Positions 21,401 through 45,400 of a stretch of DNA of 64,000 bases are shown here, piece by piece. The notes beneath the pieces were generated by a model. The model did not search any database. It was not told the origin of the DNA and worked only from the letters and a program-made list of their open reading frames with translations. Where the stretch lies: NCBI GenBank assembly GCA_021108075.1, contig JAIORP010000120.1, positions 21,557-85,556 of the forward strand. Direction: 5' to 3'. Within the stretch, counting starts at the first letter, position 1; the number at the start of each line of letters is the position of its first letter. A program made the translations under genes and the position numbers. The DNA comes from Candidatus Omnitrophota bacterium. Its GTDB lineage: Bacteria; Omnitrophota; Gorgyraeia; Zapsychrales; Zapsychraceae.

Positions 21401-24400
21401 GAACGGACGCTTTCAGGGCATGTAGATTTATTAGCAGAATTTTTTAGCACGCCGGAGAGGCGGCGTATTTATAAAGAATTCCTGGGAGAAAGTCATTATG
21501 AAGACCCTGACAATCCGGGGACAGGTATAAAAGAAGAAATTGCTTTAAGAAAATTAATAACAGGGATTATTACAGAAATAAAATTTTCTGAAGCGGTTGT
21601 TTCAGGGAAGGATACTCTTAACGGAAACGCGAGAAGGATTCCGCAGAGTTTTATCAAAGATCTGATGCAATTTTTAATAGAAAATTTTTCAGGAAAAGAT
21701 ATTGTTTCAGAGTCGACAGCGGATCAAATTAAAGGAATATATGAACGTCATGAAATTATCAGTGAGAACGGGACAAAGAAGAGATATCGCGTATTAAGAA
21801 AAAATGTTCCGCAGGTTAGAACAATGTGGGGTGTTGTTGTGTCAGATAAAGATATTTCCCCCTGGGAAACTGTTGATATTGAAGTGAATTTTGAGATTGG
21901 GAGGGATTTAAACAAGGAAGAAATAGAGCGTCTTTTAAGAAGCAGGACAATAGATGTGAGGGTAAAGGTGAAGAGTTACCGGGATGCAAACGGAGATAGA
22001 CACAATACAGAAAAAGAGGAATCTTCAACGCTGAATTACGCGGTAAGGTATGAGGATATCGAAGTAATAGAGATGTTTTATGACGAAGGGGCGACTATGT
22101 GGCGTGGCGCAGTTGAGGAATACAATAATCAACGCGCGCGGAAGGTTCGTTTTAGAATGAAGGTGCGTTTCGCCCCTGTTCCGGGTACGTACACTGTGGA
22201 GGTGTATGTAATACAAAAACAGGGAATAGTCATTGTGGATGATATAGAGGAATACAGGAAAGGGATTGTTAACATAGCGGAGCCCGGGATGTTCACAGAA
22301 GAATTTTTTAGAAAGAGGTTTCCATCGAATTATAGAAAATACATCGGGACACCTGAAAAACAAAAATGGGAGTATAAAAAAGAATTAGTGAAAGAAGTAA
22401 TCCTCTCGTTGTTTGGCAGATATATTAAAGAATGTACAGAAGCAAGGAATAGATACAGAAGATGCAACGCGCTCGCGAAATTAATATATCTGCAAAAGAA
22501 ATATAATACGGCAACAGAGTTATTAGATGGCATTGTTACCCATGAGGATCAGAGGGTGAGGCTTGCAATCGCGGAGGATATGGAATGGTTGCCTGCTAAT
22601 GACGCGTTGGTATATCTTAAGAGGCTCATCAAAGACAAAGATAAGAACGTGAGGGAAGTTGCCCTTGATATAGAGGAGGACATTAGTGATGAAAGGAGTA
22701 ATTTTTATTTCTGGCACTGGATGAGAAATTATTTCATGCCGATGGGCGGGTTTTTAAACAGGACAATAAAGAAAATCAGTAAACAATGTATAGTTGAGGT
22801 TAATGAATTTATAAAACGGAGATTAAAGGATAGCAACCTTGATTTGGAGATGGATACTAAGGAGATATTTACAGAAAGATCAGTAAAGGAATCCTCAGAA
22901 GTTATTCTTAATAAGATAAAGCTTATTTTAGCCGAAGCACAGAGGGGGATTACAGATAAAGATGAGATTGAGCACATGGAGAATATCTGTTTTAAACTGG
23001 AAGGATTTATAAAAGTTTTGGATTCTTTCAATAAAGTGGAAGACCTGATAAGAATAGGAAAAAGGAGGGACGAGAGTATAGAACAGGCATTAACAGAAAA
23101 GGCAGAGTTAATTAAACAGGAGTTTTCTTGTATGGAAAGATTCATGAAGATGTTGCGGCAGGAAGGCGCGATTGTAGCAACATATTTGGAAATTATTAAA
23201 GAAAAACATATTATTATAACAGGAATGATCGATTCGATATTAAACCTTGGCAAAAAACAGGCAGTGCGTACAGAGACGATAAAAGATATTGTTATTAGTT
23301 TACAGTATGTGGAGAATTTAATGAAATTGGAAAGGTTAAAGAAGGCTAAGAAATTAGAGGCGTCGGGAGAATCAGAAAAGGCAGAAAAGTTAAAGAAAAC
23401 CAGCCTTAAGATAACATTTAGCTTTGGTAAAGGCGTGAACCTTAATACGGCAGTAAAGGTAGAAAAGACATTTGTAAGGCTTCTTGGTGAAATGGTTAAG
23501 AATTCAGAAGAGCATGGAGGAGAAAAGGTAACTATTACTTTTGTCCCTAACAAAGACAAGGTTACGATTCTTTATATAGACGATGGAGAAGGACTGGATG
23601 TTAATACAGGAGCAGAGAATATCTTCCTGCCATTATTTAGCGCAAAGGCCAAGATTATTTTAGACAAAGAAAAATGTGATCCAAAAAAGGAAAAATTAAA
23701 TGCAGATATTGTAAACAAAGTATACCTTTTGAGAAAGGGTGTTGAAATCATTGGCGGGCAGGTGGATATTGTCGAGCCAAATGGAAAAGGTTTTCAGTTA
23801 AGGATTACCGGTTTGCCGATTGAGTATGATCCGGAAAGATTTTATGACATCGGCGATATGTATGAATACCTGAAGAAAGAATTTGAAACGGCATTATCGC
23901 GGTTAGAGGATGTTGATGAAGATTTACTGGATACAGGGGATGTTCAGCATCTTGGAATGTTATTAATTCATTCCCTTGAAGAATATCGTGATGCTGTTAT
24001 TAAGGGAAGAATGAGATTTATTTTATCAAGCGCGGAAGAAGTAAAAAAGCAGTTAAACATATTGTCCGAAGAATTAGTAACTCTCCAGCATTCGGATAGT
24101 TACCTGGATGACCCTGATGTCAGGGGTCAAATAGATCCGGTTTTAATAACATTTGATAGGATTTTACGTCAGATAAAGTTAACGTCATTATCGTTAAGCC
24201 ATTCAATGAAAGATGTCTCAATAGGAGAATTTATGCAGAATATGATCAACCGGTTTAACGATGAAGTACAGGATGTAAATGTTAATCTTGAAATAGATGA
24301 GAGGATATTGAATGAGACGATTTTTACATTTTATGACCATCTTGAGGCAGGACTGACGAAACTGCTCTGGTATGCTGCTGCCTTTGAGAAGCCCGAAGGC

Positions 24401-27400
24401 TGTGAGATACAGATGAATGTGCGGCTGAATAAAGAGATGGCGGGGATAGCAAAGGCAGAGCAGGATGCTGAAATGCCGGTTATTTTTGTAGGGGGGCTTG
24501 GAGGTTCCAAACGAAATGAGGCAATACGGTTACTGTCGGGATTAGGGATATTCCTTGAGGTAGAGGTATTTGTAAAAGGCATGAGCCTTCCTGGGGAGAT
24601 AGTCAAAAAGGTAAGAGATGCACGCTGTCCGATGATAGACGCGAAGCATATTGAACATACATGGTTTGGCCTCTGGTGTCTGGATAATCAGTTAAAGGGT
24701 GTAGGGGGGCATTTACAGGTTGTATCCGAAGATTCCGGAACAAAATTTGTATTGTATGTGCCTGTTAATACCACGCCGGAGCTTGTTAAGAAAAAAGAAC
24801 TGGAGGGAGGGCGTTCCATTAATATGGGATTTTTCTCAAAGGTGCTTGCGTATTTTTGCCGGCAGGAAGGGATAGATTCTGATGACAACGATGCCCTTGT
24901 TAAATTATTGCGGGAACTTTATGTGGAAGGATTAAATAAATTTAGAGAAGAACCACTGCCTTTCTGGCGAGAATCCAGTACAGAGCCACAAAAAATTTCC
25001 GGTGAAAATATAAGAGATCAAATTAAAGATGCGATGATGGCTCTGGAAGATTATAAATTGATGGAGAAAATCACAAAGAACCCTGCTGTTCAAAAAGAAT
25101 ATCAACGGATAAATCAGGAAGTAATAAAATATAATAAAGCATTGGGATTTAAAAATGTTGTTTTAAAAGTTAGGGATTTGAGAAATACAGGGCAGCAGGA
25201 CAGGCATGGCCTGGAGGTATATGTTCGCCTTGACGGCAGTTTGCAGATACGTTCAGCCTGGCTGGGACGGCATCCTTCGGCTGTTGGAGAGCAGGATTAT
25301 GCAACAGGTGTAAAGAAAAATGGTATTGCAGTCGACGATGAAGTAAACCGGAAAGAAATTATAAGCATCGACACAGATAAACTTAATCCTCTCGCAATAT
25401 ATTTGACAATACAAACGGAACTTGTCAGAAGAGGATTTTTTTGCCGCAATGAATTTGTAGAGGCTTTGGGTAAGTTTAAAGAGAACGGATTTATTCATGA
25501 AGGGTTGTATCGAAGGTTGCTGCATGTGGTTAGAGGGAAGGTGGAAAAGGTTGAACAGGGTAGGCAGGAGGAAGATCAGTTAATTTCGGATTATTCAAAA
25601 ATCGACCCTGCCATTAATTGGGTAAATCCTGAAGGTGTGCCGGAAGGATTGGAGGGGGCAGAGGAAGGGGCATATTCAGGAGATACTTTTGATACGAGGT
25701 TGAGTGGCGAGGAGATAAGAAACGGTAGCTTTTATTTGAGGGGAGCGCTCGGGGCAGCGTTTGCAAGGGCAGTGGCGCAAAGGGCATTGGCGCAGGCAGG
25801 GGATGGAGCTGTGGAAGAAGTGGAAGGAAAGATAAGGAACAAATTTGTCGGCTATATTATTAAGAAAAATAATAAAGGTGAATTAGTAAGCATTCTCACC
25901 GCCTACCACAGAAACAGCGATACAATCCTCATCAGCAAAGCACTCCCAGCAATAATTGAAGCACTTAATAAACATCCTGAAATAGGGCGTAAAAATGGAA
26001 AACTCGGCGCGGGAGATATCCTCGCACAGGATCTTTGTGACCACGAATTGTGGCATAGAGGGGAAGGCAGGTCAGGAGCTAAAGCAGAAAATGAAAGAGA
26101 GGCAATAGATATCCTTCGCCTCCATGTTCTGGCAAGAGAGAACGGTATCGACATTAACACCTTTGCAGATGTCCTGGTTGAGATGAACGTTATTACGCCG
26201 GAGTTTGCAGGATTGTTGAAGAAGCCGGATGTAACTAAAGGGGTGCCGGAAGGATTGGAGGGGGCAGAGGAAGGGGCATATTCAGGAGATACTTTTGATA
26301 CGAGGTTGAGTGGCGAGGAGATAAGAAACGGTAGCTTTTATTTGAGGGGAGCGCTCGGGGCAGCGTTTGCAAGGGCAGTGGCGCAAAGGGCATTGGCGCA
26401 GGCAGGGGATGGAGCTGTGGAAGAAGTGGAAGGAAAGATAAGGAACAAATTTGTCGGCTATATTATTAAGAAAAATAATAAAGGTGAATTAGTAAGCATT
26501 CTCACCGCCTACCACAGAAACAGCGATACAATCCTTATCAGCAAAGCACTCCCAGCAATAATTGAAGCACTTAATAAACATTCTGAAATAGGGCGTAAAA
26601 ATGGAAAACTCGGCGCGGGAGATATCCTCGCACGGGGTCTTTGTGAACGCGAATTGTGGCATAGAGGGGAAGGCATGTCAGGAGCTAAAGCAGAAAATGA
26701 AGTGGTAGAACGGAAAGGGCAAATAATAACAAGTCTGAAGATAAAAGGTAAGAGGCGACCTGTTAAATATAGATTGTACTGGAGAAAAGGCAAATTAATC
26801 TGTTCATCATTGGAAGATATTTCTCCTGAAAAAGCAAGAGAATTGGGGGTAGATAAGGTTAGTCAATTTAAAACTGATGTTAATGGGGTATTATGTGTTT
26901 TAGAAGAAAAAATATTTTTAACAAAGAAGTACAAAAACAGGGAAGGGTATGCGGAGGTTAATGAGGCTGGTGTAGTTTCGAAAATAATATTAATGAAAAC
27001 AAAAAGAGATAAGGAGGTAGAGATTGGGGTAGAACGGGAAGGGGAAATTATAACGGGTTGGAAGATAAAAGGTGAGAAGCATTCTGTTAAATATAGATTG
27101 TACTGGAGGAGGGGTAAATTTATTTGTTCATCATTGAAAGGTTTTTCTTTTAAAAAAGTAAGAAAATTGGGGGTAGATAAGGTTAGTCAGTTGAAAGTGA
27201 ATGCTTTGGGGGTATTGACCGTGCTTGGTGAGGGTATACCGATAGGGACTTGTTATGCAGAAAGAGAGGGTTTTGCTTTGATAGACGGTTCGGGAGTACG
27301 GGAGATAACATTGATTGCAACAAGGCGGGAGCCGGAAGAGAAAATAAAAATCAAAAGAGAGGGTAGAGTTATTAAAAAATTTGAATTTTATTTTCAGGGA

Positions 27401-30400
27401 ACTGAAAGTGTAAGAGAAGTTGCATATATTTCTTTAAGGCGGGAAGATGGGCACCTGATATCATATTCTTCCTTATGTGATCCTTATTTTATAAGTAGGA
27501 AAATTAAGAGAAATAAATTCAGCGGTATAGTAGAGGGCATGGAGGTGACTAAATTCGGGTGGGTAAGCATTGGGATAGATAACTTTTTTATTCCGCAGAC
27601 ACGCGGCTGGGCTGTAGATATTAAGTATGATAACGGAGAGGCAGTAAAACTTTATCTGATTAATCCTGAAAGTGGAGAAAGATTAGAAAAAGATGCGGAA
27701 GAGGTAAAGGTAGAAACAAGTGACGAGTGGACAGAAGAAAGAAAAGCAATGTTTAAGAGAAAAAAGGGTATTATTCTTGATAGGGCTAAAAGATATTGTA
27801 ATTATGCAGGTATATATGGAATAAATTTCCATGAGCTTGTTTCAGAAGGAGAAAAAGCATTAATGGGAGCAATATTGCGTAACTATAAACCTGGAGAAAT
27901 TAGATATGAATATGCAGTTCTTTGTATAAATGGAGGGATGTTAAACCTGATTGATAATGAGAGAAAAGCAAGAAATATCAGAAAGCAGGACAGCAGGAGG
28001 ATAGCCTGGTTATACAAAACAATGCAAGAGCTGGAAAAGGAATTAAATAGAGAACCTGAGGCTCAGGAGATATGTGAGGCGATGGATATAAGTATGGAAG
28101 AGTTATTTGAGATACAGAAAATTCGGGGAAGGTTAGCCACCTCTAGTATGGATTTTCCGACCGGAGGGAGAGGGGAAGAATACAGGTCAATGCATGAAGT
28201 AATAGGCGATAAGGCAATGTTAGCAGATGAGATAATGGAGGCGTCAGAACGGGAGGCAGCCATTAGAGATGCAATGAGTAGGCTGTCGGAAGAAGAAAGG
28301 GAATATATCAGGATGCTTTTTGGATTTAATGAAGAGATATATTCAGCGGAAGAAATTGCTCGGTTAGAGGGAATTACCTTGGAGAAATTTAATGTCATTA
28401 AATTCGAAATATTTGCGAAAATGGGAGAATATGTAAAGGAGTATAGTTCGCATGGATCGAGGATTAAAGGAAGAATTGAGCAAGATTCAAAAATCGACCC
28501 TGCTATCAATTGGATGGCTCCTAAAGGTGTGCCGGAAGGATTGGAGGGGGCAGATGAAGGGGCATATTCAGGAGATACTTTTGATACGAGGTTGAGTGGC
28601 GAGGAGATAAGAAACGGTAGCTTTTATTGGAGGGATTTGTCAGCGGGAGCGCTCGGGGCGGCGCTTGCAAGGGCATTGGCACAGGAAGGGGATGGAGATG
28701 TAGAAGCAGGGGAAGGAAAGACAAGGTACAAATTTGTCGGCTATATTATTAAGAGAAATGATGAAGGTGAATTAGTAAGCATTTTCACCGCCTACCACAG
28801 AAACAGCGATACAATCCTCATCAGCAAAGCACTCCCATCAATAATTGAAGCATTTAATAAACATCCTGAAATAGGGCGTAAAAATGGAAAATTCGGCGCG
28901 GGAGATATTCTCGCAGAGGCTCTGTTTAAACATGAACTGTCGCATAGAGGGGAAGGCAGGTCAGGATCAGATGTGGAAAAGGAACAAGACGCAAAAGATA
29001 TCCATTGCCACCGTGATTTGGCAAGAGAGAACAGTATTGACATTAATACCCTCGCGGATGTCCTGGTTGAGATGAATGTTATTACGGTGGCATTTGCAGG
29101 GTTGTTGAAGAAGCCGGACATGATTCCGCAGTCAGAGGTGAAAGGAGACAGGGAAGAAATTGTTTTGGAACAAAGTGGATGGGCCTGCGCGGCCTGTGGA
29201 AAATCTGTCGATGGTTTGATCCAGCGATGGGAAGAGACCATTATTGAAAGGAATGACCTGCAGGCGCTCAAAGCCCGGGTGAAGACATCAAGAACTGTTT
29301 ATGAGACGACATTAGACCATACGGGTGTTGATGCGCGTTATCTACGCGTTGGATCATTTATTTTAATCGATCGATCTGTAGATCAAGCGCAAGCGTGGCA
29401 GGCGGTATTACCCCATAACGTCATTTTAATCGAACGACCATTGGAGTATGACACATACATTGTCTCTATGATCGCCGCGCTGTTGGATCTGGCACAGGAA
29501 AATATTTTGAATAATGCTGTTGTGGAAATCCACGGTGTTGATACCGGATTGATGGTTTATGTGGCCTTGCGTTTGGGAGCAAAGCGCGTGGTTGGGATTG
29601 ACCGTGGAGAAGAAGCCATTCAACAAACGGCACAGTTGCTGAGTGACCATCATTACCGGGGGGCTGTTTTAACTGAAGAAGACTGGTTCACTTATGCGAG
29701 CGAACAGGATGAGGATTATGTCCTGGTTCAAGGGGAGTTAAAGAATTGGTATGCGGTATCGTATCAGCAACGTCAAAATTTACGCGGTCAAAAGGAGTAT
29801 ATCCGTCTCAATGATACGGGGCCGCATTATTCCATTCATCAAGACGCGATGCGAGACATGTTAAGAGACCCCGACGCTGTTGCCATCGTGCTTGGTAATT
29901 ATATTAATTCATCGCCTTTGGCCCGATCGCAAACCCCCGGCGGTTTAAAATCCTTAGGGGATGAAGTCGATATTTCAGCCCTGCAGGCCATCGGTTGGAC
30001 AGTGGAACAAATTGCTTATCCGACAAAATATAAAGATTTTGTGACGCTTGTTGCTCAAAGGGAGCGGAACGCGTCAAAGAAAAAATTGGCCGATCACCCG
30101 GTCGAAAATCTTGGCCGACAGTCCGGGGATCCCGGGTTTCTCACCGGCCGGCCAGTAACCGTACAGTCCATTCCACAACCGCGTAAAGTTTTTGTCGGAG
30201 GAGGTGAGCGCGTCAATCAAGAGGATTTCGTTCCTGTTATCACAGACAGCATCAAGCAAGTCGCGCAAACACAATTAACCCGGTTATTAGATCGATATCA
30301 TTTTGATTCCAATGCCGTCTTTTACCGTTTCCATCAGGGAACAGATCCAGCGCAAACGCTTGAACAGGAACGCCAACAGCTGATCGATGCTCAGGGTGGA

Positions 30401-33400
30401 ACATGTTTGGGTTTATCCTCTATGTTACAAGAGAACATGTTGACGGCATTATTTCGACCGGACTTTGCCAGTGACTTATCGCGCCGTCTGGGATCAAGGG
30501 TTGATACGCATATTTTAGAACATGATGACCGTCAATACCGTTTCGTCATTACTGTCGATGGCAAAAATTTTGTCATTCATGGGTATTTAATCGGCGCGTT
30601 AGCGATTGATCAATTCAATCACCGTTCCAGATCCCGCGTGTCTGCCCGGGAGAGTGAATATTATCGTTACCTGCATTATGCTAATATACTGAAAATTTAT
30701 AGTGAGCAGGAGTCGGTTGCCGCGTTTGTCAGCGATCCGGGCTTTGGTGTTCATTATCTCCTTCCATTAAATGAATCCGTTATGGGGTTACGCGCTCAAG
30801 TCAGGGTCCGGCCGTTAGCGCGCGATGAATGGCCTGTCTATCAATATGATAACCGTGAACTGGCGTGGTTCAACCGTCCGGCTTACCGGGTTTTTGGTGA
30901 AAGCATTCAGAATAAGTTGTTGATTTTAGAAGGGGTGTCCGCGCGCCCAATGGTCTTTGTTGATCAACTGTCTGAATCTGTTTACCGACGACGTTTTTAT
31001 CAAGGGTATCTCGCGATCAGCTTAAATAATATTCAGAGGATTATGCGTTTTGAAGCGAAGACGGGCAGAGTCAAGGTATTGGCCGAAGTATCCTTTGGCT
31101 CCGAACGAAGTCCGCGGTTGACGTTTAAGCTAAGATATTACAACGCGCAAGGAAAACGAATGAAAGTGGTCTTAAATGAAAAACAATTGCGCTTAGCGCT
31201 TGAAAACATGCGTACTTATCGAGAAGGGCGGGATCAAACAGTTTTGCCGAGACACAGCGCGATGGCGCTCGAAGCCGGAGAACTATTGGGACAAACACGA
31301 CAAGAGTGGGAAGACCGTATTGCCGTTATTTTAGATCAATTCGCATACCGTAAGGAAAAGACATTCAGGACTCAATCCGGCCTGTCTGAGAGCACTGTGC
31401 CGGAAGGCGCGTGGGATGTGGATCAGCGCACATATGTCACAGAAGATGACCGTGTTTACGATAAATTTGATTATCAGGATCTGGTCGAGCAGGGTTATAC
31501 CGTCTATAGGAATCATCAGGTCGAACTGGTATTCTTATTACGTAAAGACGCGTCGGTCGTCTTGATCGATGTCATTGCCGTGACAGATCGTCAAGCCATG
31601 GAATACATGGGATGGATCCATGCGAGCTTCCGGTCGCCGTTAATGCTTGACCGGTCCTTACATGATGTTGATTTACGTTTCACTTTGGCCACGGTTGAAT
31701 TCTTATCCGGACTGGACGCGAATATACTGGACGAGATTTATCACATGCCGCGGCAACAAGTGGCCTTGTTTGTCGATCTGTCCTATCAGAATGTTAAGAA
31801 ATACGCGCAATTTTATAATATTGATAAAATATTGATGAGTTCGGTCTTGAACCTCGCGCAGCACTCGGGATTTGAACGCTTCACCGTCAATCCGGCCCAA
31901 AATAAATACGACTATTACCGCGAACGTTTTCACGCAGAGTCCTCCGGTCATTTTACCCGGAACATGCTGGATATGGTGTATTACCTGGCGATTGACATTA
32001 CCGAACAGATCGATATGCCATATATTCTTTTTGATCGTGATCATTTGAACCGGCTCCGATATTTGCTTGTTGAACGCAGCCATCCAGCGCTTGATACTGT
32101 TGTCCGTGTCATTATTCGCGAACGCGCGACAGGACGTTATTTGGTGTTGCAAAAATTAGCGGCCTCAGTCGCTCCGGGCTGCTGGGAAACTCCTGGTGGA
32201 AACGTCGATACATACGAGACATGGCGACAAGCGGCCTTAAGGGAAACAGAAGAAGAGACCGGTTTTGATATTGATTGGGTCGAGGCATTGAATCCAGGGC
32301 AACCGGTGATTTGCTGTTTTGACCGGTTTGTCCGCAGAATTTATGGTTTTTATACGGAGATGGATCGCGTGCACGAACCGTCTATTAATAATAAGTTCAA
32401 AGAAGATGGAACATGTGAAGATAAGCATGCCGCAGCCAGTTGGAAGACGGAGAAAGAAATAAGAATACTTATGGACATGAACCCATCTGAACAGGCCTCC
32501 ATGCTGAAGACCAGCCGGGTTGTTTTTGATTTGCTGTTGTCCGATGGCGTTATCGACATGGAACGGGTGTCAAGAATCGTTCATTGTGTTCGTGATTTAC
32601 CGCGAAATTGCGCTTATAAGAATGTCTCCACGAAAGAAAAATCTGATTTATTAACACATCTCCTGATTCAGATCCACCGGAAGCAAATAGATGAGGTTGT
32701 CGAGCGGCAATGGGATGACGACGGAAACATTCAAAATTATTACATCAAGGCCGGAGCATTAAAGACTGCTCTGCAATCTAAATTGTATGTTCAACCCGTT
32801 AAGGATAACTATTGGCATGTGGTCACAGATAAAGCCCAGTTTTATCGTGGGCCGGAAGGAACGGATAACCCTTGGACGATTCAAGACCTTGATGATGACG
32901 ATTACGTTGGAGCACGCAAACGTAAAAGACGTTCCAGACACGATAAAGAATCCGTTGTTAAATTAGAGATGGAGAAAAAAGCACAGCCGGATCATCAGAT
33001 TGAATACATTCAAGAACGCCGGATCATCAGCCGTAAGTTTATCACCCGCTCCATCAAAGAATTGGATATGTATTGGCAGATGTTTGATGTGATTTATCCG
33101 GCGATAGCCATTTATGGTTCAGCTCGAATCCCATCTGCTGTGGGCAGAGACCTGGCCAAACGTTTTTCAACATTAGGCTACGCGATCACAACCGGTGGAG
33201 GACCGGGTTGTATGGAGTCAGTCAACCAGGGCGCGTTAGAAGGCCTTCGACGGTTATCTGTTGGTTTAGGCCTGAAATTGCCGTATGAAGATAAATTAAA
33301 TGACTATGTTAACATCCCATTTGAATTTCAATACCTTTTCACGCGGTTATTAGCCTTCCTCACATTTAATCGCGCCCATCTGCATGTCAAAGGCGGGCTG

Positions 33401-36400
33401 GGCACATTAAATGAATTCTTTACCGTGACAGCGGCCAAAGAGATCGGTTTTATCTCGGGAGATACACCAATCGTCCTGATCGATAAATGGATGTGGGGTG
33501 TTTTTGATCAATTGATTCGGCAATGGGATGATCGCGGCTTTAGCTCTTACCGTGCGCAGGATATGTATCAACTATACGGCGCAAAACAAAGATCTCAAAT
33601 TGTCCATGATGTCCATCAGACCGCGAAGCATATGCAACGCCAGAACGTGTTATGTATTAACACCGAACTGATTTTTAGGGAATTGAATAATATTAACCGG
33701 CGGCTGAAGGGGCTTGGACCGACAGTCGGTATTATCGGTGATGACCGCAGTATACGCGAAGGAGAGTATGACTTCGGCGTCGCTGAAAGATTGGCGTCAG
33801 TTTTGGCAAAAGAAGGTCTTTCTATCCTGCGCACCAGTGAACGGGGGATCGGCGACGCTGTGCATCGGGGATTTGTCGATGCCCGCCGTGTTGCGCGGCA
33901 GGCTCCGTACAGAGTCAAAGAGCGTTTGATCGGTACAGCCCATGACATCAACGGAAATGGGAATGGTACAGCCCATACATTAAAACTATCATATGACTTT
34001 TTAAAGAAGATCGTGCTGAGCAGTCCATACACGGATGCCTTGATTGTCTTCCCGGGCGGTTATCACGTGATGGATGTTTTGATGGAAGAAGCGTGCTTGA
34101 TCAAGACCCACAAGATCGCTCCCCGGCCGATAATCCTCATGAACAGCAGGTATTGGACCCCATGGCGTGAAGATTTTCTGCGGGCTAAAATGGTCGCTGC
34201 CAAAACAGCCAATCATAAGGAAATCAATTATTTACATATCGCGGATACGCCGGAACAGGTCAAAAAAATTCTGATGCCGCATTTGTATCAGCAAGGTTGG
34301 TATGGTGAACAGGCCAAGACCTCAAAGTCCAGGGCGATCGTCTCTAACATCGGCAAGGTTTCTTCGAAGAGAAAGCAGCGTAATAAAAGCAAGAAGAATC
34401 AAAATGGCGATAAGAACGATCATTCGATCCGTCCGGTTGTCCAACTTCTTATCGGTCTATTGTTATTCTGGTGGCCGAAAGTGGGTAAAGGTTTTAGGCG
34501 TGTTGGTACTGAAACGTTCAGGGCGCGGAACGACTATTTATTAACATCAGCAACTTATCGCGGCCCACCATGGGTGAAGGTTATCGCGGCCTTTGTCCGA
34601 GCTTGGCTTTTACCGGTTGCCCGGGGCGTTGATGCGGACGGTCAGGTGCGCTGGTATGTGCCGCGATCGTACCGAATTTTAAATCTGTCCTATCAGACTC
34701 AATATTCGATTGACCGGCATGAAAGACAATATTCCGCACGTCCTATCCTCGGACTCTTTTTAGGGGAATTTAAAGGCCTTCGGGCCCAGGTACAGGGATT
34801 CCTCAATAAAGAGTGGATGTTTGAATATTTAGATCGCTTAGACATCATGCAGTATACACAGAAAGATAGCTTATACGGACGAGGATTATCAGTGCCCCGT
34901 GAACACGCAACTTCTTTATTCGACCGGCTCGTTCGGTCCAAACATCTGCACGCGTCTTCGGATGTTTTAGGGCGTGAATATCAACGTGTTTTCAGCCAGT
35001 ATTCTGCCTTCTGGGCTGATCATATTCTCGCGAGCCATGCTTTGATATTATCCGGGGCAAAAAATATCCGGCGGGATTCTGTTACGGTTGTCGGTGTTGG
35101 CGCGGCAAGGGAGATTCCTTTAACGGAATTAGCGGTGCTATTTAATACAGTCAAGATTATTGATATGGATGACTCAAGTTTGAGAGATGCCTACCTATCT
35201 GTTCCGGCCCAGGCTGTTGATGAAACCGGGGTACTATTGCGGTCGAAAATTCAGATGATTCAAAGGGATATAACAGATGATCAGATGCTTCAGTTAGCGC
35301 GGGCAGGATTGAAGATTATCGAACAGAATACAGAACCTCAAAAAGCTTATTTAGAGTTGGTCAAATTGTACCGCGACACAAAATTGCAACCGGTGTCCGC
35401 AATGGATGACGATTTGGCCGCCTCCTATATTGTTTCTTCATGTGTTTCCAGCCAAATCATGTGTTATCCCGTTGATTTTATCTACCAAAAATTCTCTAAG
35501 AAATTCGGCCTAAAATGGGATGACCTGGAAGCATGGAATAATATTTTGGAAAAAGATCAGGGATCTGCGCTATTGACGGTTTACCACGACGCGTTTGAGC
35601 GACTTCAGTTGCAGGTCTTCAGCCAGCATGTCCAACTGCTGCAGTCCATCGTCCATCCAGAAGGGCATATTTACTGGTCTGATACGGTCATATCATTACC
35701 GCTGCTCCAGAGCATGAAAAAGGAAGATATGGGGCTGTTTTATGACCGGTACTTCAGGGCGATCAAACCTGATATCGCAAGGATGGATGCTGACAGCGCG
35801 GCGCAGGCAAAGTTTGAAGATCGTAAGCTTTATTACCGCCGAAAACATCCGTCATTGGGCGAAGACCGGATCGCAGCCATTGCTTATATATCATTGATGG
35901 GTGAACAGATTCTTCCATTTAAGAAAGAATATAAGGGCATCTGGACTTTGATGAAAATAGCGCCAAAGGTTTCGACATCTGCTATCGGCCACATGCTGAA
36001 TCAGGAACAACTGCAACAGCTGGAGTGTATTTTAGGAACACCTGACAGCCGCAGAGACTGGTTCTGGGTCGCGAATCCATTTAATGTTTCCCACGGAGAG
36101 TCAAACGGCGCTTTCCTTGTTCAATCCAGATTGTTTACAGCACGGGATAAAAAAGCACTTCTCTCAGACAAGGCGTCGAGTGACCGGTCCGCTCTGGTTG
36201 AGCAAGAATTCTCCATGGAAGTCGAAGACCCCGGCCTGTTTGAAGAACAGATGAGTTGTACCGCAAAGAATGGTTGGTTCTGCGCGGCGTTACCGGATAT
36301 GTCCGGAAAGGTGGCGGTCATTCGCCGGTCAGGGATCGGGAAGGCGAAAGCCTTATCGGAGATCGAACAGATTATCCGTCAGGAACAATACTTACAGTTC

Positions 36401-39400
36401 AAACCTTTTACTTTGACGTATTCCTGGATTAAACAGGTGTTGGCATATTACGTCTCCATCAATAAAACAATACAGGCGCAGCAACTAACCGCGATGGTTA
36501 AACAGGGATTTGTCCGTGCCGGCCCATTGAAATATTCAAGAGGTTTCGCTTTCGGGGATTATATTGTTATTGCCGATGAAGATGTTTGCAATCCAGGTGC
36601 TCTTCTCGTCAGCTTGTCGAATGGTGCACGGCTTTCCGTTCTCAATCATCGGACACGTTTATACTTTGGCATATACCAGTTCACTCAAAGATTGCGGCAA
36701 TATCCTGTCCGGCTCCGTGACCGCCGCAAATTAAATCAAGCCGGATTAATCAAGTTTGCCGGAAGACATAATAAAATCCTTCCGGAGAAGTTGAGCAAGT
36801 CGTATCACGAATTAACCGGAATATACATCGGATTAAAAGGCCTGTCAGAAACGCTTAAATATTTCGGTATCGCTTCAGGCGTAAGCGGGGCGTTATGCGG
36901 CCAGGTCTGGCTGGGCGTCCTTGTCTTTCTGTTAGGCCTGTTTGCCGGTGGTTTAACGCGTATGAGTGTCACTTTAGTCCTTAAAGTAACGCGCTACCGG
37001 GATATCCCGCTGCGACGGTTATTCTATCCACCGGCGCTATTGCCCTATTTTGGTTTCCCGTATTGTCTGCTTGTCTTATCAACACCCAGGTATACGCTCA
37101 GAGAACTGCTGGCGTTAAGAAATATTTATTACAAAGTCAAATGGGGGCTCGTTAAAGCGGTTAAAGATGGTGATGTCACAGATGGACAAATGCAGGTTAT
37201 TCGCGGATCCTTACTGGAAGTTTCCCGGGATATTCTTGATTATCAACGAACGCATTTAACCCTCCGTCAAGGATATCGCGGAAGAGCGGAACGTAGGATG
37301 CGTATCAGATATCCAAAATTCAGTTCAAAGACAGAACCGTATATGTTCACAGCCCTGCTTAAAGGACGTCCGTTCTTATTTGTCGGTTCAAGCGCTGGCA
37401 TCGAAAGGACGAGGAAAAAGGTGCAGCAAAGATTCGGCTTGAAGTATCAGCCGAAAATATATTACTACGATATCAGTCAAGTTTTGAATGTTTCCAACGG
37501 TGATGCCTGGCCAGAAACTTTTGTTAAACCGTTAATGGCTGATACAGAGGAACGTTCCCCTCAAACGGTGGTGCATATGGAACCGCGAAAGAAAGATGCC
37601 CCTCAGCCACGCATGACCGAAAGTCGAGTTAAGTTGGTCTATCAAAATGTGCATGGAAAAGTAATCGCTTGGGTTATTAATAAGAAAGGATTATTTGTTC
37701 TAAGGGAACAAATATTTGAAGGGGTTCTGGAAAAACAAATCTTCATCGGTATTTATCACGTTTCAGCAGATGATGGAGCAGAAAGTCGTGTCGGGGAGCG
37801 TAAGTATGTTATCCGGGAGGATAAAATTATTGCCGGAGCTTCAGGAGATTATGATTTCCATATTGACCCGTCCTACAGATCTCTTGGTCTGGGAGTTGTG
37901 GTTTTGACCCACGTATTTAAACAAGCGGTGGCCCATCAAACAGATATGATGATAATTCATTTTCCGGAATACCGTATCCAACAGACATTGCAGCGGGTAT
38001 ATGGTTTTGGTCAGGAACGGTTTAAACCGGGTATAGGCCGTTTTATCGAGAAAACTCATTTGCGGCAGCAAGCCGACGAATTTGTCTGGCTCGTAGAGGA
38101 TCATTTAGCGCGGCGTCAAAAGGAAAAAGCGTTTCAGTCCCGGTTCATAACAGCGTTTCAAAAGGGCGCTGAACCAATTGAGGTTATTTTAGAGAAGAAA
38201 GATCTCTCGGCTGATTCCATTCATTCTCAGGCAGGTTTAAGCCGGGCAGGTCGAATCAAAGAAATTTTATCGCGTAACTGCGTCTATCAGGCAGTAACGG
38301 TTAAAGAACGGAGATTATTGGTTCAGGCCATTGAGGCTTCCTCCCGGGAGGACAGAGCGCTGTTAAGGGTTGCGCCGCATCCGGTATCCGGTCAGGCAAA
38401 AGTCTGGTTAGATGCGTCCTTTGCCAGAAATTTTGTTCAGCAGAAGATGAAATATCCTATTTATGTTGAAAACATCAAACCAGGGTATTGGCATGCCATC
38501 AAAGAATACCGGCCAGGATCTGTTCCCATCTTCGATCCAGCAGTGACGGGTTGGATAGGTGCTAAGTTAAAGAACCGGGAGAAAGCTCAAATTCTTATGC
38601 AAGAGATTGAATCTTTATTTGCGCAAAAGCAAAAGAATGTTTCATCCGCTCGTCGATTTTTTATTCGCCAACGCGTTAAATCGCTACAGGCCCGGGTCAG
38701 GCGGTTTAAGAAAGACAAGAAATATGCGACGTTGATTTCTGATTTAGAACAATGCAAAGTTGATATGGCAAGCCCGTGCGACTGGAACAAATCATGGGAT
38801 CTCGCGATCCGCCAACAAAAAAGCAAGAAGCAAAGAGTTCAGACATCAGGATTTTTAAAGGAAAAAGTGTTTGGCCTGATGCGTCGGCGACACAAAAAGG
38901 GCGCACCGGATGAGGTCCTGGATGTTGACTCAATTGAAGAGGTACAGGAAGTAGAGTCGGAACAGCCAGAAACTGTTGCCGCGCAATCAGCAGATCTTCG
39001 ATGGAAGCCAACACGTCCAACGTATACCGGACGAGAAATCCGGAAATTTTCGCGCATAACAATCAATCAGAGAACAAAATTTATCAGCGATTTAGAGCGT
39101 GTCCGGCTTCGAGTAAACGGATTCGCGCGAGAACAATTGACCGATAAGACAAAAGCAGCGTTCACTCGGGATATTAAGGCCTTATCCGATAAGATTCATG
39201 CGGGTAACGGGGAAAGCGCGTCTTTCTTCCGAAGAGAAATCAAAAAGATTCAAGCCGTTCTTGATCAGGTCGATGTCCAGGAGATGAAAGATGCTGAAGG
39301 AGTGATAAAGGACAAGAACGGCAAGAATAAAAAGAGTGACGGCCAGTTCATGCCAGCAGAAGGGGATCAAAGCGCTCAAGCGGATATGGTTGGTACGATG

Positions 39401-42400
39401 ATATTGATGCTTGCTATAGATTTGAATCTCGACTTAACACAGCCCGCGCTTTTTACTCGTTTGAAACGGATTTATGAGAAGATGCCGGAAGCCATCGATA
39501 CGTTAGTAACCTCTAAGAAATCATCAGTGCCAGAACACAAAGAACAGTTGAAAATATTAGTGAGCCGAGATGCAACCGATTTTGACATTGAAGAGCGGCT
39601 CAACATTGTCGATCAGATCGCAAACCCTTCTATTGCTTTTGAGGTCACGCTGTCTGAACTCAACAATGATCAAATTGATAACATCATCCGTTATGCACGT
39701 TTAAACCGTTCTGTCAAGCAGGATAAGGTTGAGGTGAACATGGCGGACTTCTTCAATGGACCTGACGGTAAGATTGAGGAACGTATAAAAGAAAGGATTT
39801 CCCGGGAGGCGTATAACCTCAGTAATGCTGATCAGCTCAAAAATAATTTAAGAAACGTTGAGGACGTTATCGACGAACTAGAAGGATTAAAGCAATTGAT
39901 TCAAAAAACGCTGGATCAGTTTCCTCAGCATGAAATTAAAAACTTCACGATTACGAACCGCACAAGCAATGATATCTGCATCAGAATTAATGATGAAAAG
40001 ATTTTAAATGAATTAAGGATCGGGACCCTGATCACGTGTGATGACCATCAGGGCCGATGGACGTTAGCCATTCGGGATATTAACGATGGCCATATCCGGT
40101 GTGCTTCTACTAAAAGTTTACGATTATTAGTCCCTCGAACCGTCAGGATGACGTTTAAAGCTCAGACCTCGGCAGAGGATCAGAATATCAAGGTTTTAAT
40201 CAAGTTATTAAGGCAGTTGAGAAAGCAAGGTTATACGGGCGTCGAGGCTGTTGATTGGGCCTTACGTTTACGCATCCCGCCAAGATCGATCCAAAGTCTG
40301 CAGGAGTTAAAAGCGGCAAAGGGGCTAACAACAAAAATGGCCGGCTTAGATGAATTTCAACGCGCCGCTGTTTATTTAATGGCAAAAACGCGGTTTGGGT
40401 TTGTCCATGGTCCGGCTGCGAGCGGAAAAACACGGGTGATCAGGGCCGGGGTCGCGACACTCATCCATCAATTTAAGCGTTTCATTTTCACGGCAGCTTA
40501 TCAAAATGTCAATGTCGATGACTTAACAACAAAGATCGGACAGGATAAAAGTATCCCGGTTGTGCGTCTTGGACATCCCACGAGTATCGCCCCGGATGTT
40601 TATGATGCGTATGCCTATAAAAATAAAGAGGCCTGGAACCGGTTTAAAAATAAATATGATGATCTTAATACGTTCCAAGACGAATGTGGCGCGACGTTAA
40701 CGATGACCTTAATGGGTGGGGCTTATGATGAATCATTGCAGAAATTTTTAATATATCGGGCGAAAAATCCAAATGACGCGCGTTTCAAGAAGTTAACGCT
40801 TATCATCGATGAAGCCGCCATTATTAGTTATGTTGATATGCTTGTCGCCTTGTATTTGATCAATCCTTATGCGGTTATTTTTGTCGGTGATTATGTTCAA
40901 ACCCGTCCATTACCCTTTGATGCTGAATATCAAGATGTTATCCCGCAAAAGCATATCGCTCAAATCATTGAACAACAGGCAAAGGACGTTCGCCGCTATG
41001 AAAAGAGCCTGTTCGAAGATTTAGCGGATGAGCCGTATGACCGTGTCCGTTTGTTACGCAATTATCGTAACCATTGGGCGCATGTTGATTTGATGCAGCC
41101 GTTTTATTCCTTCCCATTGCTCAGCGCCAGCCGGGAAAGAGGGGACCCATTAGAAGAAGACACCGTTGTTATTCTCGATACCGCTCAACCGGGCGTCCTG
41201 GACGAATGGCTTGATCAAAAAGGATTAACATGTTTAGATTTTACGACCAGTCGAACGGCAATTCATCAAGGTCATCAAAGTTATGCCCTTGCAGGAGAGG
41301 CCCGTTGGTCGGTCGGAAAAATCATGCGGTATGTTTTGGCACGTCAAAACCAGGAATCCGCTTTTGACGCAAAGGATTATTTATTCATCAGCCCATATTG
41401 CGGCCAGGTTAAAGAGATCAGCCGGCAAATAAGGACGATGAGTCGTCTGCACGGGTTAGCCTTGTGGCAGCAGCAAGCTTTATTACAGCGCGTGTTAACA
41501 GCACGTTTAGCACAAGGGTTAGAAGCCCTGGATGTTGTGATTTCTTTTGGACGGGCAACAGCTCCGAATAAAAGAAATGTCCGGGCGGGAGCAAATGGTT
41601 TTGCCCGTATGAATTTGCCTTTGGTCGCTGATCCTCATGCTTTACTTGTGATGCTCTCACGCGCCCGAAAACGTCTTTTTGTGATCGGTCATCGTCCGAC
41701 GCTGGAGTTTCTCAGCCGGAAGGGATCTGATCCGCAGATGTATAGCAGGCTCTTTAACTACAAACCGATGCCTCGCCGGCAACATCAAGATGATGGCTGG
41801 TTCTGTGCTATGTCAACACCTGTTTTCCAACCGGCTGTGACTGAACCGATCAACGATGAGGCAGCCCAATTAATATCAAAGGGCATTTTCTTGGAATTGA
41901 AACGTAAAATTTCAGAAGGCATGTTCAATCAAGAAGAGAATATCCGCTGTCAATCGAAGGCCTATTCGCATGACCGCATTTCATATTATCGTCTCGAAGA
42001 AACAGACGGGAAGCTGCGTCATGTCATGGATACGGTTTATATGCGCGTCGGACATTTATTTGTCATGAATGCAGATATTTGGAAGGTGCTAACACCAATC
42101 ATGCAAGACGCGATTCGAACAAATGTGATTATTGTTCCAAGTATTAACGCCTTATCCTTATCCCGCAATAATTATTTTTATTACACTATTTCTACGATCG
42201 TTGCCATGATGCAGACGGATTTAAGAGGAAAAAGAGTGATTGATGCCGGCGCAGCAGAAGGCTTACTTGGGCTGGTGGCTTTGAAATTAGGCGCCCACTC
42301 GGTTGATTTGATCGAATATGACCGGCGCTTATTAGAAGGAGCTCAAGGTATTTTATCACTGAACGGTTACCAACCCGATATTCATTACCGTATCCATTGG

Positions 42401-45400
42401 ACCAGTCTCGTCCATACGTATTTTTTATCATTGCGTTTGAATCAGACTGATTTGCCGAGCGTACTCATTTCCAATATCGGCCCGTGGGCTTGGACAGGGG
42501 ATGTATCCAATAAGGATTCCATTGATTTATTGGCGGCGTTGAAGAATGTTCAAACATTTATTGCCAGCGGCTATGACTGGGATCATACCACGATGATTGG
42601 AGCAGACCATGAATACATCCGTCCACTCGGTTTCAAAGAATTAGACTTTGTTCAATGTCAGCTCGGGCACAAGGAATTGCTGACCTGGATGGTTAGCAAG
42701 ACAGAACCGAGCTCTGTTAAGAACGAAGAATATTTCAAATATATTAAAGATTGCGACTTGGACAATCTTCTGACGGCCAGCAATGTCTACCGGTATTTAG
42801 AGGAAGAGATTGATCCATCATTGGCCGTAGTCCTCCGTTTTGCTGCAGACAAGATAACCGGCGCTGAGTTGATGACGCAGATCGTCTTTATCCCGTCCGA
42901 TGGTTTATTCAAGGAAAGAGTGCTGTTGCGCAGCGCGTTTCTCCAAAAGCATTTGCCACTTGCGGTCCAAGGACAATTGTTCATTGAACCAACGGTCAAT
43001 TATCATATGTTGGCACATGCAAACCATTCCAAAGCGCTGTCCTTAGCTGACGCTGATCCAAATATTTTGATAGGTCCTCGTCAGGAAGAAGATTTAATCA
43101 GTGATTATCCTGAAGAGAGTTTAGCTCCGTATTGGACGTGGCTCGCTCCTGTCGCGCGCGCCTCGGTTGAATCGAAATTCCATCACGCCTTACGACCGAT
43201 TATCCCACTGATGTTAAGTGTATTGCAATACGTGAAAGTCCCTGGAGCGAAGCGATTAGCAAAGATCGGGATGGAAACATATCGTGTGAACAAAGAATTT
43301 TTCAGGGAGCATCCTTATTTACGTGGTCCACCTTGGATCCGGGCCTTATTTCAGCCTGTTGCCAGAGGGTTTGACCACGATAATGCCATCTGTTGGCAAT
43401 TGCCGTATCCGTACATTAAGAAAATCAAACATTCTTCACGGTTTTTCATTGAGGTTCATGAACGTCAAATATTCGACATTGAAGTCCCCAAACAATTCAG
43501 ACGCCGTGTCTTGTCACAGATCGCGGCTGCCGTCCTGCGTTTTATCGGCGAGATTAAAGCCTGGGTTTATTACTTCAGGAATTACAAATCCTTGCTCAAA
43601 CAATATGTTCATAAAGAAGAAAAGAGATCAACAGTTGTTGACCGGTTTATTTTAGACTTTAAACCATTGACAGACATGACGCCACAAGAACAATTGTTGT
43701 ATGCCCGGGCGAATACGGAAGCACGTGTTAAGCGCAAGGAAACATGGATGCGGGAAAACGCCCAGGAGGTTCAGCGCCGAGACGGTGAGACTCTTATGGC
43801 CTGGGTCAAACGTGTGTTGTATGACTTGAACTGTGAAGTGAGTGAAGCGGACTTGGACATTGTTGAAATATCAGACCAGAAACTTGTGACGTCAAACTGT
43901 AACAACTGTCCGATCCTTGACGCTTGTGAGAATCTGGGACTTGATACACACTTCGTCTGTAAAGAAATTATGCATAAACCATTTGCCCGTTTGGTGGAAC
44001 TCATGGACCCGCGCCTGACATTTGACCGGGATTATGTCTATGGGTTACGACCGCAAGCTTTGAGCTGTATTGAGATTATAACGATTGATGAAAGCAAAAA
44101 AGACAACAATCACAACGGCCGTCCTAATAATGGTCAACATACCCGGGTGATTAACCGCAAAGACATTCTTCCTTTACTTTTTGGGAATTGTTTATTGAAG
44201 GGGCTTTTGGACTTGGAAGCCTATGTCCAACTGGATAATATTTATAAACATATTTTTACTTATGATGGTCCTGAAAAAATCATAAAGATCATTACGGATG
44301 ATCACGGGCAAGAACGGCTTTTGGTCAAGAAGGATTATATCCAGAGATTCATCCCCGAGGACATAAGAGATAAGCTGATGATCAAACCAACCGCTTATGG
44401 ATATCATGTCCGAGTCGTTGATGATGTTCCTGCCTACGAGCAGGAAGACTATCAAGCGTTCAGGTTGATGCCCGATGGAATATTTCTGGGGATAGATGAT
44501 GCATCAGAAAACACGAATGAGTCAGAGGCGCCTGCGGCACCGCTGAATGTTGTTGGTCCAGAGGGTCCTCCGGACGATGAAGACGATGACCGGATTCCTT
44601 GGTGGTGGTTTTTGTTAGCTTTCATCATGTGGGGGCTATTACTTCGCAAGCATATTTTTCAGGAACAAGACTTTACAAATCCAGATCCATTATTGAAAAG
44701 AGTTGAAACCGTATATTATCGCGCACCGCTGTTAGAGCCGAGGCCAAGGAATCCAAGATTAAGGTTTATCGACGGCATATTCAAGAAGTACGCACCTGTT
44801 GTTGATCCGACCCCTGCAAAATGGCCATTCCCGGCAGATAAAGAAAGGTTTCCGGAGACCGTAATTCCGGGGCATATCCTTTCGGACGTGCGTATCCGCA
44901 AGATGCCCCCCAGGATCCTCGTCCAGCCGTATACGGTCTTTCCAATGCTGTATATTCAGCGGGAGGTCGATCAAATGGGTCTGCCGCAGTTTGGGCCAAT
45001 GCCCCCGAATACTTTTATTGATGTCCGTCCTTATAATTTTGATTTCTTTTTCTTATTCGTGAAACTCATGGCGATCGGGTATGGCAGTTATTCTGTTGTC
45101 ATATTAGGGTCCATCATGATGATTTTTTTGCCAAGAAGTTGGATGGACTTATCACCGGTTTTTCTTGTTATTGAGTTTGCGACAGCTTGGCGGAGGAAGA
45201 TACAAAATGTGATCAGACCGCTTACGTCTGCACGCTATCAAAGACCGGATTATCGGTCATTGTGGAACCATGTTTTTGGAAATATGTATTTAATGACTAA
45301 AAAATTTCTTATGTCGAGATCCCTGACCGAAGATATGAAGAATCAGCGGTTGATCAAAACAACCTCTGACGGAGGTCGGGATGTGTCTGACAATGTTCCT

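Follow-up and report, generated by a model that had tools for sequence, protein, structure and literature searches.

A giant membrane protein of Omnitrophota carries a Upf1-like helicase module next to a PrmA-like methyltransferase module

The DNA analyzed here (the window) is a stretch of 64,000 nucleotides (nt) from an uncultured Candidatus Omnitrophota bacterium, on contig JAIORP010000120.1 (assembly GCA_021108075.1, positions 21,557 to 85,556 of the forward strand). It contains a giant open reading frame (ORF) that encodes a protein of 15,549 amino acids (aa), and the C-terminal quarter of this protein carries two neighbouring modules, a helicase and a methyltransferase, about 80 aa apart. 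A first-pass annotation of the window had described, at nt 40330-42560, a Upf1-like helicase core of superfamily 1B (SF1B) followed by a methyltransferase inside a giant protein. All of the strings quoted in that annotation are present in the giant frame at the positions given there, and both modules do lie in the range. The limits, however, were drawn too narrowly: the predicted stalk and barrel of the helicase start at about 39857, family homology starts at 40142, and the methyltransferase extends to about 42712, roughly 150 nt beyond the proposed end. The features of the locus are collected in Table 1.

Table 1. Features of the giant ORF and of its helicase and methyltransferase modules, in window coordinates
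Feature	Position (nt)	Strand	Evidence or remark
Giant ORF hosting both modules	26..46675	+	Single 15,549-aa frame, no internal stop
Second, weaker methyltransferase copy (aa 9754-10015)	29285..30070	+	hmmsearch i-E 3.3e-11; weak Methyltransf_31 match
Helical N-terminal extension (aa 13011-13277)	39056..39856	+	Model helices 1-158; blastp
Predicted stalk helix, six-stranded beta-barrel, second stalk helix (aa 13278-13401)	39857..40228	+	DSSP H159-179, E184-258, H263-282
Helicase module, RecA1 and RecA2 of Upf1-like SF1B (aa 13373-13913)	40142..41764	+	Subfamily hidden Markov model (HMM), hmmsearch 642 bits
Motif I / Walker A, GPAASGKT (Lys13468)	40409..40432	+	Lys invariant in subfamily
Two-helix insertion between motifs Ib and Ic (aa ~13517-13551)	40574..40678	+	Model H404-410, H415-428; predicted local distance difference test (pLDDT) 85-91
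Motif II / Walker B, LIIDEAA (Asp13595, Glu13596)	40799..40819	+	DEAA at 40808; Gln of DEAxQ replaced by Ile
Motif III, VGDYVQTRP (Gln13625)	40883..40909	+	G, D and Q invariant; aligned to Upf1 GDHCQLGP
Motif IV, RNYRNHW (Arg13681, first arginine finger)	41057..41077	+	R invariant; aligned to Upf1 QYRMH
Motifs V/Vb, TARLAQGLEALDVVISFGRAT (Gln13830, Gly13831, Glu13833, Arg13843)	41498..41560	+	Subfamily and Upf1 alignments
Motif VI, ADPHALLVMLSRARKRL / ADPHALLVMLSRARKRLFVIG (Arg13879, arginine finger)	41627..41689	+	Canonical RR replaced by His13871-Ala13872
PrmA-like class I S-adenosylmethionine (SAM) methyltransferase (aa 13979-14229)	41960..42712	+	Family HMM 257 bits
SAM motif I, VIDAGAAEG (Asp14073, Gly14075, Ala14077, Gly14079), and post-I Glu14097 in DLIEYD	42236..42322	+	24-member alignment
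Methyltransferase motif IV, LISNIGPWAW (Ser14149, Asn14150, Ile14151, Gly14152, Trp14154)	42464..42493	+	Alignment A1

The helicase is a genuine but divergent member of the Upf1-like SF1B helicases, and its match to them lies far beyond chance. Both Pfam families that the first-pass annotation had proposed as a check were recovered above their gathering score of 27: AAA_12 with 50.7 bits (E 2.2e-13, aa 13658-13890) and AAA_11 with 38.2 bits (E 1.8e-9, aa 13441-13526). In a 4,149-aa context the scores were 47.5 bits for AAA_12 and 27.9 bits for AAA_11. When nine members of the subfamily were aligned (alignment A2) and the resulting profile was compared with PDB, Upf1 was reached at 3.5e-26 across profile positions 64-501, nearly the full core, and DNA2 at 1e-25, followed by NAM7, ZNFX1, IGHMBP2, Sen1, and Aquarius. 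The single helicase sequence matched IGHMBP2 and Upf1 alone in PDB, weakly and over RecA1. The RecA2 half alone gave no PDB match in a phmmer search, and for this half Upf1 was reached by the family profile only.

Relatives of the module are scarce. A word-indexed protein database returned no relative for the single helicase sequence and, with the subfamily alignment as query, only canonical fungal and bacterial Upf1-like helicases. An exhaustive HMMER search of 1.84 billion representatives was needed to recover the true relatives. It produced 258 matches, of which about a dozen span the whole helicase at 33-38% identity. The named ones are all from Omnitrophota and are labelled "AAA family ATPase", "AAA domain-containing protein", or "DEAD/DEAH box helicase"; MBU1862171.1 (3,064 aa) and MFH1061386.1 (1,074 aa) are examples. 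A metagenome scan with one degenerate pattern added four loci (L082-L085). Members of the subfamily occur in two forms, either embedded in proteins of several thousand residues or as a free protein of about 1,060 aa with an N-terminal hydrophobic segment. In the free homologues L082:8426-11626 and L083:2346-5531 (~1,060 aa) the helicase makes up the C-terminal half; these proteins open with the signal- or anchor-like hydrophobic segment MNKILFKIISLILIQVLLLGNMGMA, the surrounding charge pattern of which leaves the orientation unsettled. Their first ~400 aa have no counterpart in the giant protein, and homology between the giant protein and its free-standing relatives begins at aa 13261-13276. 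Sequence comparison places the module in a rare subfamily, in which every member with a name comes from Omnitrophota. It is present once in the giant protein: the helicase HMM matches a single time, no second copy was found, and the Walker A string GPAASGKT is the sole G....GK[ST] of the entire protein. Membership of the helicase in an internal repeat of the giant protein was checked and ruled out.

An AlphaFold model of aa 13120-13915 was built from an extended nine-sequence alignment (A3) and reached a mean pLDDT of 75.3 and a predicted template modelling score (pTM) of 0.71. From N- to C-terminus it shows a helical N-terminal region, a stalk helix, six strands, a second stalk helix, RecA1 with a two-helix insertion, and RecA2. 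For the N-terminal extension, conservation reaches no further than the nearest embedded relatives (P0001 and P0003, by blastp), and no known family was detected for it in Pfam or PDB. The predicted stalk, barrel, and second stalk occupy the position of the 1B domain of the Upf1 family, with pLDDT values of 76-95 in the stalks and 53-74 in the barrel, and the two-helix insertion is located where domain 1C of Upf1 falls in the profile alignment. Foldseek returned Upf1-like SF1B structures as all of its top matches: Dna2 (2.8e-23), Upf1 (5.5e-22), and then SETX, IGHMBP2, Sen1, ZNFX1, Aquarius, and nsp13. The template modelling (TM) score was 0.61-0.64 when normalised to the Upf1 or IGHMBP2 cores. 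The predicted layout is the stalk / 1B barrel / stalk / 1A(+1C) / 2A order of the Upf1 family.

The motifs that build the ATP site are conserved under strong divergence. Nine helicase relatives that are only 23-36% identical to the query share 42 invariant columns with it, including Lys13468, Glu13596-Ala-Ala13598, Gly13621, Asp13622, Gln13625, Arg13681, Gly13831, Arg13843 (in "VRS"), and Arg13879. The Walker B Asp13595 is present in eight of the nine aligned relatives; it and Gln13830 are counted among the residues for ATP binding and hydrolysis that the subfamily keeps. The RecA1 motifs Ia (PQH..ADD), Ib (VLR.G), and Ic (T.MGG) are also conserved across the subfamily, each with invariant positions, and the four further metagenome loci carry the same motifs. 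Arg13681 and Arg13879 are presumably the ATP-contacting arginines, as in the structures of Upf1 and PcrA. Within motif III, the string GDYVQTRP starts at nt 40886. A second DEAA string at nt 41855 is incidental. One motif was reassigned: the string VISFGRAT at nt 41537, which had been taken for motif VI, is the tail of motif V/Vb, and motif VI itself lies further downstream, with MLSRARKRL starting at nt 41651 and LSRA (Arg13879) aligned to LTRA of Upf1. Apart from this, the alignments and Foldseek bore out the SF1B core; Walker A, Walker B, motif III, and the two arginine fingers are all preserved. Neither a disrupted Walker B or arginine finger nor an assignment to a P-loop family other than helicases, which the first-pass annotation had named as possible grounds for doubt, was found. 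The conservation pattern is that expected of a working ATPase.

The second module, which the same annotation had placed about 0.5 kb downstream of the helicase as a PrmA-like enzyme, was recovered by profile search, by the Pfam matches of its family, and by Foldseek. It consists of an N-terminal beta-rich subdomain and a Rossmann domain. The string GKRVIDAGAAEGLLGLVALKLGA begins at nt 42227, and DLIEYD begins at nt 42305. In an alignment of 24 members (A1), the Asp and both outer Gly residues of motif I are invariant, as are S, I, and G of motif IV, with N and W conserved in at least 90%; SNIG or ANIG predominates as motif IV in the wider family of 104 members. Pfam PrmA was matched by all 24 members of the alignment, with a best E value of 3.6e-11. 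The A1 profile matched PRMT7, PRMT1, and PrmA in PDB at about 1e-9, in alignments confined to the SAM-binding third. The AlphaFold model of this module is of high confidence (pLDDT 90.7, pTM 0.89). Its top Foldseek matches are structures of full-length PrmA (3cjt, 2nxj, 3cjr) over about 250-270 columns that include the N-terminal subdomain, at TM scores of 0.56-0.60, and the structure of the PrmA catalytic domain, 3grz, gave a TM score of 0.75.

The methyltransferase is far more widespread than the helicase. Among the 150 matches listed by the exhaustive search, 129 cover query positions ~650-890, which correspond to aa ~13983-14223 of the giant protein and thus to the methyltransferase. These matches include Omnitrophota proteins in which the module occurs between one and four times, and many free proteins of 260-480 aa. 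More than 100 copies are scattered through giant and small free proteins of Omnitrophota. In GenBank, several relatives carry the name "50S ribosomal protein L11 methyltransferase", and the named ones are all Omnitrophota. PrmA itself acts on ribosomal protein L11. The presence of many copies per protein and their embedding in giant proteins make it unlikely that the module is a housekeeping L11 enzyme. The Pfam matches of the 24 members (PrmA, MTS, Methyltransf_31/25, and similar) included no DNA-methylase family, and the DNA-methylase signatures (D/N)PP(Y/F) and PC/ENV are absent, with SNIG standing as motif IV instead. The most probable substrate of the module is an amino group on a protein, which it would N-methylate, and not DNA.

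The two modules look like independent units rather than parts of a restriction-like machine. They are linked in only one of about 16 helicase relatives. This relative (P0001) carries the methyltransferase about 350 aa downstream of the helicase, with a HATPase_c domain in between. The helicase occurs without an adjacent methyltransferase in P0003, P0004, P0008, P0011, P0075, and L082-L085, and no methyltransferase was found within 10 kb of the free helicases of L082 and L083. Conversely, the methyltransferase module occurs up to four times per protein without the helicase, and a second, weaker copy (aa 9754-10015) in the giant protein itself shows that it recurs on its own. The free helicase genes of L082 and L083 are located directly downstream of miaA, in neighbourhoods that hold a miaB-like gene, miaA, genes for an HTH_8 protein and a HATPase_c protein, pdxA, surA, and mfd, and no defence island. 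In the flanks of the modules (aa 12308-13372 and 14230-15549), Pfam at E <= 0.1 and phmmer against PDB gave nothing credible for a nuclease or other nucleic-acid domain, and no PLD nuclease was matched in the giant ORF by Pfam or in these flanks. Membership in the defence systems Mokosh, PLuB, and mads was considered and rejected, the matches being partial or below threshold. PADLOC matched the helicase to MkoA of Mokosh (E 2e-15) at profile positions 796-1080 of 1112 only, the generic RecA2 part, and the methyltransferase to mad2 (3.5e-6), and NCBIfam PLuB_AAA was matched at E 4.6e-9 with 34 bits against a cut-off of 999. The suggestion that the pair targets RNA or DNA or forms a restriction-like conflict unit is thus not supported: the enzyme is of the PrmA/PRMT type with SNIG, no nuclease was detected within ~1,000 aa on either side, the linkage is rare, the free homologues have housekeeping neighbours, and the defence-family matches stay partial or well under their cut-offs.

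The proposal that the host protein is membrane-anchored holds in a hydropathy scan, which marks hydrophobic transmembrane-like segments on the N-terminal side of the giant protein (aa 10-28, 63-81, 115-133, and 383-401). Further hydrophobic candidates at aa 12289-12307 and 15017-15035 flank the stretch with the helicase and the methyltransferase. Elsewhere in the giant ORF, Pfam detects Bac_transf, HD_5/HD_4, HEAT_2, HATPase_c, NUDIX, and about eight Lysine_decarbox/SLOG stretches. Archaeovorin-type giant proteins have been described for Omnitrophota and linked to predation (West-Roberts et al. 2023, bioRxiv 10.1101/2023.11.21.568195), and a preprint of 2026 (10.64898/2026.06.07.730766) defines a "multi-enzyme, TM-only" class (TM standing here for transmembrane), the members of which are read as facing the cytoplasm. 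Divergent SecA-DEAD-like motor domains were reported for most published Omnitrophota giants (10.1101/2023.11.21.568195; 10.64898/2026.06.07.730766), whether of the Archaeovorin type or of the "multi-enzyme, TM-only" class. The domain mix of the protein studied here fits this class too. With the Archaeovorin type it agrees in origin, in its multiple predicted transmembrane segments, and in domain content, but not in the SecA-DEAD domain: Pfam gave no SecA_DEAD match at E <= 0.01 across the giant ORF, where a very divergent copy is possible. The main texts of both papers contain no mention of AAA_11, AAA_12, or Upf1-like helicases, and one supplementary file of the 2026 preprint holds no AAA_11, AAA_12, or PrmA entries.

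On balance, the C-terminal quarter of the giant protein probably contains two independent enzyme modules side by side, a Upf1-like ATPase motor and a PrmA-like methyltransferase. The conservation of the RecA1 motifs Ia, Ib, and Ic and of the ATP-site residues suggests that aa ~13278-13913 form an active ATPase, which, like other Upf1-like enzymes, may move in the 5'->3' direction along single-stranded RNA or DNA, with RNA slightly favoured. The giant protein would hold it at the membrane while it works, and its RecA2 contact would be altered. In the neighbouring module (aa 13979-14229), a protein amino group would be methylated with SAM as the donor. Since the modules need ATP and SAM, the stretch of ~2,700 aa between the hydrophobic segments near aa ~12300 and ~15020 would most likely face the cytoplasm, in agreement with the reading of TM-only giants in 10.64898/2026.06.07.730766.

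Several observations weigh against this interpretation. The topology of the giant protein is based on a crude hydropathy scan, and the 1B-like barrel reaches a pLDDT of just 53-74 in the AlphaFold model. In the methyltransferase, the central Gly of motif I is replaced by Ala; the same variant recurs in 18 of the 104 family members and is therefore no evidence of decay. The query alone scores 19.1-20.6 bits for Pfam PrmA, below the cut-off of 22, and 16 bits for the NCBIfam prmA equivalog, the cut-off of which is 183. For this reason the module is called PrmA-like and not PrmA. Despite the low score of the query, the PrmA-like assignment is secure in view of the family profile and the model.

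The more serious deviations concern the helicase. When the subfamily (n=10) was aligned with 42 canonical Upf1-like helicases, the second Arg of the RR doublet in motif VI was present in 38 of the canonical sequences and in none of the subfamily, where the doublet reads x-Leu in nine members and His-Ala in the query. The Gln of DEAxQ is likewise found in 39 of 42 canonical sequences and in none of the ten. The Asp of "VD" in motif V and the Asn of motif VI are also replaced subfamily-wide (RRLNV to xLLLV), the four metagenome loci repeat the same motif VI and DEAxQ replacements, and some members have a degenerate Walker A glycine (GTAKT, GTIKT). In yeast, the Upf1 RR793AA mutant has been used as an RNA-binding-deficient allele (PMC5196439). 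From the allele names and the motif sequence, we map RR793 to the motif VI doublet, since RR793 and TR800 are spaced seven residues, as in RRLNVxLTR. Because the RR doublet, the following Asn, and the Gln of DEAxQ are replaced throughout the subfamily, the substrate grip of RecA2 is probably different from that of Upf1. These losses could have weakened or altered the coupling to nucleic acid.

The same deviations form the basis of a different explanation, which we consider unlikely: the ATPase may have been kept and the helicase function lost. The module would then be a switch, clamp, or remodeller driven by nucleoside triphosphates, with a non-nucleic-acid partner or with binding but no unwinding, and it may control or arrange the other enzyme modules next to it. 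Such a role would suit a subfamily that has lost RR and Asn from motif VI, Gln from DEAxQ, and Asp from motif V but kept its ATP site, the RNA-binding deficiency of yeast Upf1 RR793AA (PMC5196439), and the lack of any other detected nucleic-acid domain within ~1,000 aa on either side. It fits poorly with the invariance of the three motifs that form the wall of the nucleic-acid channel on RecA1 (Ia, Ib, and Ic) and with the prediction of an entire Upf1-like architecture, including stalk and barrel. To our knowledge, no Upf1-like helicase has been shown to use a substrate other than nucleic acid. At the other extreme, both modules could be inactive passengers decaying in a fast-evolving giant gene. 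Low identity to the nearest relatives (23-36% in A2), the deviating helicase hallmarks, and the Gly-to-Ala change in the methyltransferase would be expected of a relic, yet 42 columns with the catalytic residues remain invariant at this identity, the deviations are common to the whole subfamily and not private to the query (for the Gly-to-Ala change, 18 of 104 members), and the ORF is intact across 46.6 kb. Decay is accordingly given hardly any credence here.

Two further explanations concern what the modules would act on. An effector role, in which the giant protein or its fragments are delivered into prey by predatory Omnitrophota and the modules act on the RNA or ribosome of the prey, has some appeal since Omnitrophota giants have been linked to predation (10.1101/2023.11.21.568195), ATP and SAM would be available in prey, and the N-terminus of the free helicase homologues is hydrophobic and signal-like. 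The analysis identified neither a signal for secretion or delivery nor a toxin domain or a site for processing. The charge around the segment of the free homologues leaves its orientation unsettled, and the role as a whole is pure inference. That ribosomal protein L11 is the established substrate of PrmA would fit an attack on the ribosome. With TM-only giants read as facing the cytoplasm (10.64898/2026.06.07.730766), this role appears very unlikely. Even less can be said for helicase and methyltransferase as one restriction-modification-like or anti-phage unit on DNA or RNA, which we hold to be extremely improbable. The two modules are adjacent, partial PADLOC matches to MkoA and mad2 exist, and the nucleotide-centred SLOG, NUDIX, and HD domains of the protein are also found in conflict systems; on the other hand, the MkoA match is limited to RecA2, the PLuB score is far below its cut-off, no PLD or other nuclease was detected, the SNIG enzyme is PrmA/PRMT-like and not a DNA methylase, and the linkage is not conserved, with free homologues lying between miaA and pdxA/surA/mfd.

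A bolder extension of the reading as two independent modules is that the subfamily represents an undescribed Upf1-like lineage restricted to Omnitrophota, in which the ATPase engine has been kept and the gripping surface of RecA2 rebuilt, giving a translocase that is always tied to the membrane, by its own N-terminal hydrophobic segment or by a giant host protein, and has a non-canonical substrate or mode. This is a speculative proposal and quite unlikely as it stands. If it were true, the membrane-tethered lineage might handle very long mRNAs at the membrane, or it might act on the nucleic acid or ribosomes of prey together with PrmA-like methylases.

Both modules are recognisable as known families, and their relatives have already been annotated by automatic pipelines. 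The one mildly unusual point is the Omnitrophota-specific subfamily, in which the ATP site is intact while motif VI has been rewritten; no new kind of system is involved. The giant proteins of Omnitrophota are largely unannotated, and the present analysis offers two concrete, excisable domains for biochemistry. The cofactor needs of both modules provide an anchor for the topology of a stretch of ~2,700 residues. Moreover, a subfamily that has lost the RR doublet for RNA binding throughout but conserves its ATP site amounts to a modest experiment of nature on the coupling between ATP and substrate in Upf1-like motors.

Other features of the window were recorded as well. Between window positions 20001 and 30000 (aa ~6660-10000), the GC skew (0.27-0.42) and the AT skew (0.12-0.19) are several-fold above those of the remaining ORF; the encoded protein is rich in E, K, G, and R, and it contains an internal duplication (aa 8511-8892 and 9481-9699, 74-76% identical). 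A Lysine_decarbox/SLOG block of ~430 aa is duplicated at 48% identity between positions 11243-12529 and 33026-34309 (aa 3740-4168 and 11001-11428), 7,000 residues apart. Around positions 36383-36580 (aa ~12120-12185) lies a weak, sub-threshold match to a PhoH-like P-loop (E 0.0017, 18 bits) that has no G....GK[ST]. Three related copies with 32-42% identity (aa 14761-14998, 15085-15277, and 15368-15440) are present at the C-terminus (window 44306-46345); no family was detected for them, and the first and third copies are each followed by a hydrophobic segment (aa 15017-15035 and aa 15474-15492, respectively).

The genes flanking the giant ORF include mutS and mutL. The closest relatives of MutS, at 61-62% identity, come from a metagenome-assembled genome (MAG) of Candidatus Omnitrophota and from another MAG entered under Planctomycetales. 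The giant gene is followed downstream by an ABC ATPase (47948-48826) and a 462-aa partner without a Pfam match, and further downstream a weak exosortase-like membrane protein (51159-51776) lies beside a 1,004-aa VIT-domain protein (51802-54816). Scans of the window for tRNA genes and tandem repeats were empty.

Comparison with known systems places both modules, and the protein that carries them, among familiar types. With the Archaeovorin-type giants the protein shares an Omnitrophota origin, a membrane-anchored, multi-enzyme "beads on a string" organisation, and a mix of HEAT_2, HATPase_c, NUDIX, Lysine_decarbox, HD, and methyltransferase domains; it is smaller (15.5k aa), and SecA_DEAD was not detected in it at E <= 0.01. 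MkoA of Mokosh and the helicase-like protein of PLuB have an SF1B Upf1-like core in common with the helicase, whereas the module studied here shows no detected PLD or nuclease partner and no defence-island context, and its matches to these proteins are partial. The methyltransferase resembles PrmA in its class I Rossmann SAM fold, motif I, acidic post-I residue, (S/A)N(I/L)G motif IV, and N-terminal subdomain, and differs in being repeated within proteins, embedded in giants, and far below equivalog cut-offs.

The closest likeness of the helicase is to the eukaryotic UPF1/NAM7, IGHMBP2, DNA2, SETX/Sen1, ZNFX1, and Aquarius, which share AAA_11/AAA_12 with it and are its best profile and fold matches. 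The motifs follow one another in the same order (Q-like, I, Ia, Ib, Ic, II, III, IIIa, IV, V, VI), and the Lys, the Asp-Glu pair, the Gln, and both Arg fingers are shared. A stalk with a beta-barrel ahead of RecA1 and helices inserted where 1C would lie are predicted for the module. In the subfamily, however, RRLNV has become xLLLV, DEAxQ has become DEAA(L/I), and VDxFQG of motif V has become SRxxQG. The 1C-like insertion is shorter, and extra loops follow motif III and separate motifs V and VI. The module also lacks a CH, R3H, or nuclease accessory domain and, unlike its eukaryotic counterparts, sits inside a bacterial membrane protein of 15,549 aa.

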